Part shown: positions 5,740-7,513 of the stretch, piece by piece
Numbering within the stretch: position 1 is the stretch's first letter
Layout: each line of letters begins with the position of its first letter
NCBI GenBank assembly: GCA_022563395.1
Contig: JADFNM010000001.1
Span: forward strand, 19,891-83,890
Source: Patescibacteria group bacterium
Lineage (GTDB): Bacteria > Patescibacteriota > Minisyncoccia > Minisyncoccales > UBA10102
DNA: 64,000 bases
Reading direction: 5' to 3'
Notes under the pieces: generated by a model
The model's input: only the letters and a program-made list of their open reading frames with translations
The model's database searches: none
Told to the model about the DNA's origin: nothing
Made by a program: the position numbers and the translations under genes

Positions 5740-7215
5740 TTTAGAGAGTTTGATCCTAGCTCAGGATGAACGCTGGCGGCGTGGATAAGGCATGCAAGTC
5801 GAGCGATCTGGCTTTTGCCAGGTAGCGGCGAACGAGTTAGTAACACGTGGATACGTACCCTGAAGACGGGCATAATCCGCCGAAAGGCGGACTAATTCCC
5901 GATAGTTCCCGTAAGGGTAAAGAAGCAATTCGCTTCAGGAGCGGTCCGCGGCCTATCAGCTTGTTGGTGAGGTAATGGCTCACCAAGGCTATGACGGGTA
6001 GGGGAGGTGAGAGCCTGTTCCCCAACGTGGGTACTGAGACACGGACCTGACACCTACGGGTGGCCGCAGTCGAGGATATTGGACAATGGGGGAAACCCTG
6101 ATCCAGCGACGCCGCGTGCGGGATGAAGGCCTTCGGGTTGTAAACCGCTTTTATAGAGGAAGAAACTTTTAGTTGACGGTACTCTATGAATAAGGGGGTG
6201 CTAACTCTGTGCCAGCAGCAGCGGTAATACAGAGCCCCCGAGCGTTATCCGGATTTATTGGGCGTAAAGCGTCTGTAGCCGGTCTGGAAAGTCTTTTGTT
6301 AAATGCCAAGGGCTCAACCTTTGGAATGCAAGGGAAACTTCCAGACTCGAGGATGTTAGGGGCTGATGGAACTCTTGGTGGAGGGGTGGAATCCGTTGAT
6401 ATCAAGAGGAACACCAAAAGCGAAGGCATTCAGCTGGAACAGTCCTGACGGTGAGAGACGAAAGCGTGGGGAGCGAAAAGGATTAGATACCCTTGTAGTC
6501 CACGCCGTAAACGATGGATACTAGCTATGTGAAGTGTCGACCCTTCACGTGGCGAAGCTAACGCGTTAAGTATCCCGCCTGGGAAGTACGATCGCAAGAT
6601 TAAAACTCAAAGGAATAGACGGGGGTCCACACAAGCGGTGGATCATGTGGCTTAATTCGTCAACAAACGAGGAACCTTACCAGGGTTTGACACCTATCGG
6701 AAAGCTTCCTGAAAGAGAAGCCTTCTCACAAGGACCGGTAGGCAGGTGTTGCACGGCCGTCGTCAGCATGTACCTTGAGGCGCTCCGTTAAATCGGGCAA
6801 CATGCGCAACCCCTATCGCTTGTTTTACATGTCAAGCGAAACTGCCTGAGACAATCAGGAGGAAGGTGGGGATGACGCCAGGTCAGCGTGGCCCTTTGAT
6901 ATCCTGGGCTGCACACATGATACAATGGAGCCGACAGCGGGACGCAATGCAGTAATGCGGAGCAAATCCCTAAACGGCCCCCCAGTTCGGATTGAGGTCT
7001 GCAATTCGACCTCATGAAGTCGGAATCGCTAGTAATCGCGTATCAGCTATGGCGCGATGAATATGTTCCTGGACCTTGTACTCACCGCCCGTCAAGTCAA
7101 GCGAGCCGGGAATACCCGAAACTCCACCTTGCGTGGATCTAAGGTAGGCTCGGTGAGAGGGACTAAGTCGTAACAAGGCACCGGTAGGGGAACCTGTCGG
7201 TGGATCACATCATTT
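5740..7215 (+). rRNA. rrs: 16S rRNA (about 1.47 kb)
   Basis: AGAGTTTGATCCTAGCTCAG at 5745, GTGCCAGCAGCAGCGGTAATAC, and ...AAGTCGTAACAAGG...GGATCACATCATTT at the 3' end. Confidence 0.95.
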
Positions 7216-7513
7216 TTCGAAGTGTCGTCCAGATAGCCCAGCCCTTTCTACGTTTCTGCACTGTCAATCGACGAGTGTGGTAATGTGGAAAGGTATTCTT
7301 CACGAAATTGTATTTTTTGAGGAAAGCGCGGGGTGATCTGAGGTTTGACTGGAGCCATAGAATCTAGTTCCTGCCCACATCTGTAAAGTTGTGGCGGGTT
7401 GTGGAGTCGGAGCAACTCTCAGAGATCAACTTACAAGAGCAAGGTCTTCACAAAAGGCCTGTTTTTGTTTATGATAGAGAACGAACATTTCCTTAATCTC
7501 GTTAAGGAAATAT

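Follow-up and report, generated by a model that had tools for sequence, protein, structure and literature searches.

Can both halves of the Shine-Dalgarno (SD) interaction, the anti-SD core at the end of the 16S rRNA and the SD sites in front of the genes, be gone in one and the same bacterium? The question is raised by the 16S rRNA gene (rrs) in a 64-kb stretch of DNA from a Patescibacteria group bacterium (contig JADFNM010000001.1, positions 19,891 to 83,890), which was analyzed over its whole length and is referred to here as the window. A preliminary description of this DNA had proposed that the anti-SD core was lost and that the genes accordingly lacked SD sites, and both parts of this proposal survived testing. 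What the window holds is very probably a decayed anti-SD in an otherwise intact 16S rRNA, in a bacterium of the Candidate Phyla Radiation (CPR), of the Parcubacteria/Paceibacteria type, initiating translation independently of SD pairing.

As to the rRNA half, the window contains a single rrs gene, at 5738-7215 on the forward strand, which a search of the entire window with covariance models matched to Rfam RF00177 (SSU_rRNA_bacteria) with 1413.8 bits (gathering score 50) over model positions 1-1533, not truncated. In the alignment to this small-subunit (SSU) model, helix 45, CACCGGUAGG-GGAA-CCUGUCGGUG, occupies 7179-7202 and forms a perfect 10-bp stem of lineage-specific sequence around the conserved GGAA loop (7189-7192); it is followed by the 13-nt 3' tail GAUCACAUCAUUU at 7203-7215, the counterpart, with the mature 3' end placed by homology, of positions 1530-1542 in Escherichia coli (GAUCACCUCCUUA). 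When the 3' part is aligned separately, GGAUCACAUCAUUU falls against the consensus GGAUcACCUCCUUu with maximal posterior probabilities. The tail opens with GAUCA at 7203, as expected of bacterial SSU rRNA, but the CCUCC core that bacterial SSU rRNA has at 1535-1539 is absent, its place (7208-7212) being taken by CAUCA through the changes C1536A (window position 7209) and C1539A (7212). The covariance-model alignment thus confirms the CAUCA ending and the two C to A replacements named in the preliminary description, whose quoted string is located at 7183-7219, along with its statement that no CCTCC follows within about 100 nt: there are zero occurrences across 7100-7700, and therefore the motif is not merely shifted. 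Pairing of GGAGG with the tail of the window is predicted to yield -0.1 kcal/mol versus -8.7 kcal/mol for a canonical tail, and pairing of the extended AAGGAGGUGA -5.0 versus -16.1 kcal/mol, with the residual pairing stemming from the conserved GAUCAC part. On these energies, no stable helix between the tail and GGAGG-type sites is expected.

The comparison of 16S termini in related genomes, suggested along with the original observation, shows that the tail is not a peculiarity of one assembly. The 3' strand of helix 45 carries UGUCGG, a signature of the clade, and a search of the GTDB set (one genome per species) for this signature followed by any five bases matched 16 species, all of them metagenome-assembled genomes labeled Patescibacteria, Paceibacteria, Wildermuthbacteria, Nealsonbacteria, 'Saccharibacteria' or unclassified. 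The core is non-canonical in 15 of the 16 (CTACA, CTACT, TATAA, TCACA, TTCTT, TACAA, CTTAA, or CATCA), and only one species, L012, has CCTCC. Scanning metagenomes for this signature brought in 95 more contigs, for a total of 111 loci, of which 109 lack CCUCC, the two that keep it (L012 and L076) having identical sequences upstream of their flanking open reading frames (ORFs). CTACA is the commonest core over the 111 loci (32), followed by TTTAA, TCACA, CTAAA, CTTAA, and TTCTT, and the clade contains more than 30 distinct tail variants. The exact CATCA of the window occurs in four loci (L005, L053, L077, and L100), in 16S genes 95-97% identical to that of the window. In the three of these with flanks long enough to compare (L005, L053, and L100), the protein-coding DNA is syntenic but just 72-77% identical, so these are different species, from different assemblies, sharing the same tail. 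Given that only 128 taxa lack CCUCCU among some 20,600 re-annotated 16S 3' ends (Amin, 2018; PMC6107228), the recurrence of the tail in relatives reflects neither chance nor read error. These sequences exclude a mistake in assembly or polishing, as well as a pseudogene private to this organism, and the CAUCA tail is best described as an inherited trait of the lineage. The CPR/Parcubacteria affiliation is indicated by the 16 genomes with the signature, by 16S identities of 80-87% to Wildermuthbacteria and Paceibacteria records (78-87% over all relatives with named taxa), and by DUF5671 and DUF5667 proteins encoded in the window.

As to the mRNA half, ORFs were called crudely (longest ORF, greedy non-overlap, with rRNA and tRNA genes masked), and a start was scored as having an SD site if GGAG, GAGG, or AGGA lay wholly inside positions -17 to -4. 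Such tetramers precede 10 of the 74 starts in the window (14%), versus 15.4% of internal coding positions (p = 0.75), while the identical pipeline applied to 50 kb of E. coli K-12 (L112) found them at 29 of 65 starts (45%) versus 5.5% (p = 1e-19), demonstrating that it detects SD sites where they are present. The claim that most starts lack GGAGG was borne out in full, none of the 69 candidate starts of the window having this pentamer at -17 to -4. In a subset of 22 starts anchored by Pfam, in which the domain begins no more than 12 residues from the chosen start codon, an SD tetramer is found at two. The same pattern extends to the relatives, where 483 ORFs adjoining non-canonical rRNA genes have SD tetramers in 6% of cases versus 11% for the background. 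The mRNAs of the window thus carry no SD enrichment. Only two exceptions had been pointed out, the gene at 39149 and rpe, and both fall within the chance background of approximately 15%. The AAGGAG of rpe (26519-26524, forward strand) is situated 9 nt before a GTG whose choice as the start agrees with the Pfam Ribul_P_3_epim domain beginning at residue 3, and it indeed lies, as had been suspected, in a palindrome, being part of the 3' arm of TCCTTAG..CTAAGGA.

Two further observations bear on the relation between the two halves. The ORFs neighboring the two canonical rRNA genes (L012 and L076) have an SD site in only 1 of 11 cases, a hint, from a very small sample, too small to conclude, that the loss of SD use preceded the decay of the anti-SD, as in Bacteroidia. 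Inside genes, GGAGG occurs on the coding strand at 1.73 per kb, versus 0.29 in the E. coli sample, a sixfold difference that fits an absent cost of anti-SD pairing, with base composition contributing; by Markov observed/expected ratios of internal SD-like words, the window is not separable from E. coli, and only these raw, composition-affected densities differ.

Two starts set by the longest-ORF rule are likely misplaced. The gene for RF1 (2532-3671, reverse strand) shows homology only from residue 33-35, pointing to an ATG at 3575 as the likely start, and in the gene for uS2 (3805-4548, forward strand) the domain begins at residue 32 of a TTG-started ORF. A prfB frameshift was also looked for in the window; the release factor gene there is prfA (RF1; NF001859, 410.7 bits, with prfB at 252.7, below the cut-off).

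What the starts do possess is a region of low structure and high adenine content. The folding energy of 40 nt centered on the start averages -3.2 kcal/mol versus -5.9 kcal/mol in the interior of genes (p = 6e-12). The profile dips smoothly between -20 and +30, and the 20 nt upstream of starts consist of 38% A and 30% T. Adenine stands at -3 in 46% of starts in the window and in 51% in the clade, versus 28% in the coding background. Over 361 ATG-started ORFs of the clade, A makes up 45-51% at each of -8 to -2 and at -11, while position -1 has 3% G and 50% T, a deficit of G that is partly an artefact of the longest-ORF rule. The frequency of AUG triplets is lowered downstream of the start (0.0074 versus 0.0135), with no depletion upstream, but the E. 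coli control is equally depleted and the measure is thus non-discriminating.

Close spacing of genes is the other feature of these starts. Among 48 same-strand neighbors, nine overlap by ATGA, and in a further 10 the genes share 1 nt or are no more than 20 nt apart. The ATGA overlaps, all on the forward strand, join tsf and the next ORF (4997-5000), the genes for nickel superoxide dismutase and an S26 peptidase (9430-9433), the C-terminal half of transketolase and a PfkB kinase (29076-29079), this kinase and a 2-hydroxyacid dehydrogenase (30053-30056), the latter and PGI (30970-30973), a DUF5671 protein and the next ORF (32600-32603), a PD-(D/E)XK nuclease and an amino-acid kinase (39991-39994), atpD and atpC (53634-53637), and 6PGD and 6-phosphogluconolactonase (61716-61719). 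Nine such overlaps had been listed in the preliminary description, and while the tetranucleotide is present at all nine positions, a stop/start overlap stands at seven, no called upstream gene ending at 3572 or at 57181; the overlaps at 9430 and 32600 are additional to that list. ATGA overlaps are common in compact genomes and are compatible with SD-independent coupling, without being evidence for it. The EF-Ts gene at the first of these overlaps (tsf, 4536-5000) encodes only 154 amino acids, about half the length of the E. coli protein. A tsf split at 4997 was considered and rejected, as the EF-Ts of relative L053 is similarly short (149 amino acids) and is followed by an unrelated 121-amino-acid ORF; the product of the ORF overlapping tsf in the window, a small protein of basic or membrane type, is likewise unrelated.

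Taken in combination, these features point to a scheme in which start codons would be chosen without rRNA pairing, through an A/U-rich, weakly folded stretch from about -20 to +30, with the adenines at -8 to -2 acting as a Kozak-like context as in Bacteroidia, and in which operon-internal genes could be served by re-initiation at short or ATGA overlaps. In evolutionary terms, an ancestor of the clade would have abandoned SD pairing first, upon which purifying selection on CCUCC would have relaxed, and the core would then have drifted into many pyrimidine/A versions, CAUCA becoming fixed in the genus-level group of the window. The loss being both near-complete (109 of 111) and highly diversified supports relaxed selection following the abandonment of SD use. 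The main message is that selection has relaxed on a sequence nearly invariant in bacteria elsewhere, with some residual constraint possible.

Several points weigh against this reading. A stretch of 64 kb with approximately 70 genes stands for a whole genome; the start codons were crudely called, a weakness addressed by the control in E. coli and by the starts anchored with Pfam; and the mature 3' end is placed by homology, while the count of rrs copies covers the 64-kb window alone. In addition, the tail does not evolve like a free spacer, staying G-free and keeping its two uridines, so that 'pure decay' may be too simple a description. Among 54 distinct tails, G is not found at 1535-1543, compared to 6-11% a few bases further on, and U1540 is present in 49, U1541 in 52, C1538 in 35, and A at 1539 in 40. 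In pairwise comparisons, the core diverges far faster than the neighboring 16S sequence, but at short distances it is somewhat slower than the spacer: at a neighboring-16S identity of 0.95, core identity is 0.90 and spacer identity 0.75; at 0.90, the values are 0.75 and 0.66; and at 0.83, they are 0.51 (saturation) and 0.59.

Such a pattern would be expected if the tail, rather than having simply decayed, were constrained by a role other than SD pairing, such as docking to the platform, as in the bS21/bS18/bS6 pocket of Bacteroidia, maturation of the 3' end, or weak A:U contacts with A-rich leaders. The leaders are indeed A-rich, and CAUCA has persisted in relatives with flanking genes of only about 75% identity. 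We nevertheless consider such a role unlikely. The poverty in G can follow from an ancestor made up of C and U only, under AT-biased mutation; the sequences are related phylogenetically, so that the counts overstate their independence; and the identity of the core drops to saturation at the larger distances. As detailed below, no motif of 4-6 nt complementary to the tail is enriched upstream of starts, and upstream regions pair worse with their own tail than coding controls do. If such a role did exist, it would be a second function of the tail, normally masked by the anti-SD constraint, and this SD-free clade would present a natural experiment separating the two.

Translation could also be mainly leaderless, with transcripts starting at or next to the AUG, in which case neither SD nor anti-SD would be needed. 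TATAAT-like hexamers are over-represented at -17 to -12, with 51 hits over these six positions in 222 ORFs having free upstream space, compared to a background of some two to three hits per position further upstream. This excess, however, recurs every 2 nt and falls where the A+T content rises toward the start, and is thus confounded. Moreover, at least 19 of the 48 same-strand junctions overlap or are no more than 20 nt apart, and operon-internal genes cannot be leaderless, making a mainly leaderless mode improbable.

As to the idea of a re-tuned SD:anti-SD pair, in which the ribosome would read a new, co-evolved upstream motif (UGAUG, AUGAUG, or GAUGUG) through CAUCA(U), it has in its favor the stable inheritance of the tail, the -18 kcal/mol that a perfect complement would yield, and the complementarity to AUCAU of the ATGAT that arises at ATGA overlaps. 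The upstream regions, however, speak strongly against it. TGATG occurs in none of the 69 in the window; the tail-complementary 4-mers (TGAT, GATG, ATGT, TGTG, and ATGA) are present in 12% versus 14.7% internally, and the 5-mers in 3% versus 4%; and the duplex energies with the tail of the window are weaker upstream than in coding controls. When the ORFs of relatives were pooled (n = 553), each relative being scored against its own tail, matches upstream versus internally were 24.6% versus 23.7% for k = 4, 8.0% versus 6.1% for k = 5, and 1.8% versus 1.4% for k = 6. The relatives also bear many different tails, and no co-evolved pair was identified among the 128 taxa of Amin (2018; PMC6107228). 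A co-evolved SD is thus ruled out in three ways, by own-tail k-mers, by duplex energies, and by the pooled relatives, and we give the idea almost no credence. With this, the genome-side check proposed in the preliminary description, of SD-motif enrichment against both tails, was carried out on the window and on the ORFs of relatives, and neither GGAGG-type motifs nor complements of the tail are enriched. CPR genomes usually have a single rrn copy, and only one rrs copy is visible in the window. That this gene is an artefact, a pseudogene, or the variant member of a heterogeneous pair of rrs genes, as in Alteromonas, whose other member is canonical, is hardly conceivable: the tail is common to four independent assemblies, almost all loci of the clade are non-canonical, and the gene is untruncated, has a perfect helix 45, and stands in an rrn context of tRNA-Ile/Ala, 23S, and 5S genes; nor would a faulty rRNA sequence account for mRNAs without SD sites.

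Loss of the anti-SD with initiation independent of SD pairing, the reading favored here, also has precedents. The basic fact is already known for Parcubacteria and for several lineages with reduced genomes. Just 48% of Parcubacteria were found to have CCTCCT, and the lineages without the motif, which largely coincide with those lacking uL1, presumably do not form SD helices (Tsurumaki et al., 2022; RNA 28:1041, PMC9297842). The organism of the window resembles this subgroup in having a CPR/Parcubacteria-type 16S rRNA with CCUCCU absent from its 3' end. The interpretation offered in the preliminary description, of anti-SD loss together with absence of SD sites, thus stands, but as a clade-wide property already in print, which lowers its novelty. 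While the earlier work dealt with the detection rate and the link to uL1, the present analysis gives figures for tail sequences, mRNA-side statistics, and start signals, from one window and 111 loci; the window includes genes for bL25, uS2, and EF-Ts, and the rplK-rplA region lies outside it. Our additions are modest: the spectrum of tails with the near-complete loss in the UGUCGG clade, the controlled absence of SD sites and of compensating motifs, and the signature of the start sites.

Loss of the anti-SD has also been described for Chryseobacterium, Elizabethkingia, Riemerella, Blattabacterium, some Mycoplasma, and Candidatus Carsonella (Lim, 2012; PMC3457768; Amin, 2018; PMC6107228). Taxa without the anti-SD generally lack SD sites as well, and none have a co-evolved SD (Amin, 2018; PMC6107228); in tiny genomes, the loss is tied to the simplification of the ribosome (Nikolaeva, 2021; PMC7782861). 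Our case is like those of Flavobacteriia, Mycoplasma, and Carsonella in the degenerate 13-nt tail, the lack of both SD and replacement motif, the clustering by lineage, and the reduced genomes and ribosomes, but it differs from them in belonging to a different phylum, with an independent loss, and in encompassing nearly the whole of a deeply diverged clade with its many tail variants. A different solution is presented by Bacteroidia, whose SD-blind ribosomes keep a canonical anti-SD, hidden in the bS21/bS18/bS6 pocket and used for the autoregulation of rpsU (Baez, 2019; PMC6847099; Jha, 2021; PMC7797042; McNutt, 2023; PMC9976891), and in which low structure, upstream adenines, and tight coupling have been shown experimentally to determine starts (Baez, 2019; PMC6847099). 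On the mRNA side, the window works like Bacteroidia, with no SD sites, low structure, and upstream adenines, including A at -3, yet it is not a member of this type, as its anti-SD is not retained and sequestered but is itself gone, making a regulatory use of the rpsU kind impossible. E. coli ribosomes with a mutated anti-SD are reported, on experimental evidence, to choose correct starts genome-wide without mRNA-rRNA pairing, via A-rich, unstructured start regions (Saito, 2020, eLife; PMC7043885). The ribosomes described there are engineered and the mRNAs still carry SD sites, whereas the window represents the natural end state with both partners lost. By analogy with these systems, we infer that the same features drive initiation in the window.

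The window thus provides a clean natural example of both halves of the interaction being gone in one bacterium, and some practical consequences would follow. In this lineage, gene prediction programs relying on ribosome-binding-site scores will place starts wrongly, expression designs built on SD sites would fail, and SD-dependent devices, such as the stimulator of the prfB frameshift and SD-induced pausing, cannot operate.

Some features of the rrn locus deserve mention in their own right. The 16S trailer and spacer (7216-7513, forward strand), devoid of CCTCC, extends up to the genes for tRNA-Ile(GAT) and tRNA-Ala(TGC), which lie 3' of the 16S gene (7514-7664, forward strand; ARAGORN and Rfam), and a tRNA-Thr gene lies upstream of it (5364-5438). 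The 3' part of the trailer is predicted to pair with the 16S leader in the manner of a processing stem (leader 5640-5749 with trailer 7243-7339, -44 kcal/mol), an energy-minimization prediction that does not define the mature 3' end. The 23S (10913-13887) and 5S (14041-14148) rRNA genes, both identified by Rfam on the forward strand, follow only after an interruption of 3.2 kb (7664-10913) filled with same-strand protein genes, so that 16S and 23S are effectively unlinked. These genes encode an unknown protein of 167 amino acids, MscL, the nickel superoxide dismutase with its ATGA-overlapped maturation peptidase of the S26 type, and a protein with the conserved transmembrane helix of mechanosensitive channels (MS_channel_1st_1). 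The 23S gene exceeds the Rfam LSU consensus by two hairpins, each about 45-50 nt long, at 11212-11265 and 11541-11590, the second within a 23-nt inverted repeat of 91% complementarity (11537-11596); both are expansion segments, not introns. Intervening sequences and introns are common in CPR rRNA genes, and the 16S gene of the closest GTDB relative (L005, JAQBTT010000001.1) is broken by insertions at approximately 4292-4597 and 5929-6788 that are probably of this nature. One of them, of about 860 nt, is located at the equivalent of window position 7089 or thereabouts; the 16S gene of the window has neither.

The site of the universal primer 515F (window 6213-6231, 16S 515-533) reads GTGCCAGCAGCAGCGGTAA, with C526A, and U is found at 505. 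The change at 526 would lower recovery in standard amplicon surveys. Among the relatives covering this region, 17 have U505/A526, 10 have U505/C526, and two have G505/A526; these mixed states blur the covariation in the 530 pseudoknot, and 505-526 covariation was dropped as a sign of function.

Two families of intergenic repeats were also recognized in the window. The first is a hairpin of about 46 nt, TGCTTAAATCTCGTTTAG-GTGTGGATAA-CTAAACGAGATTTAAGCA, with a conserved loop, present in both orientations at 2493-2528, 20300-20341, 28059-28104, 36169-36218, and 47279-47330, and as single arms at 51271-51288, 52221-52238, and elsewhere, the arm having 17 matches versus 0.11 expected by chance. Copies occupy the ends of genes, the gaps between convergent genes, and the gap separating the two transketolase halves, and single arms stand 2 and 7 nt before the start codons of atpG and atpD, respectively. 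Each arm can itself fold as a 5-bp mini-hairpin (CUAAA-CGAGA-UUUAG). The element has no Rfam match and was not found in the loci of relatives that were compared; it could be an element resembling repetitive extragenic palindromes (REP) or miniature inverted-repeat transposable elements (MITE), a terminator, or an RNA-processing site. The second family, of about 60 nt, AGATAATCA.TAGAATCA..CATGCTTAAATGAGATTTAAGCAGCATGGAGA.AAGAATCGCC, is intergenic and is found just upstream of genes, at approximately 16290-16350, at 40722-40785 and 44334-44395, and, as a partial copy, at 39060-39096; it holds a hairpin variant of the arm of the 46-nt element, TGCTTAAAT-GAG-ATTTAAGCA.

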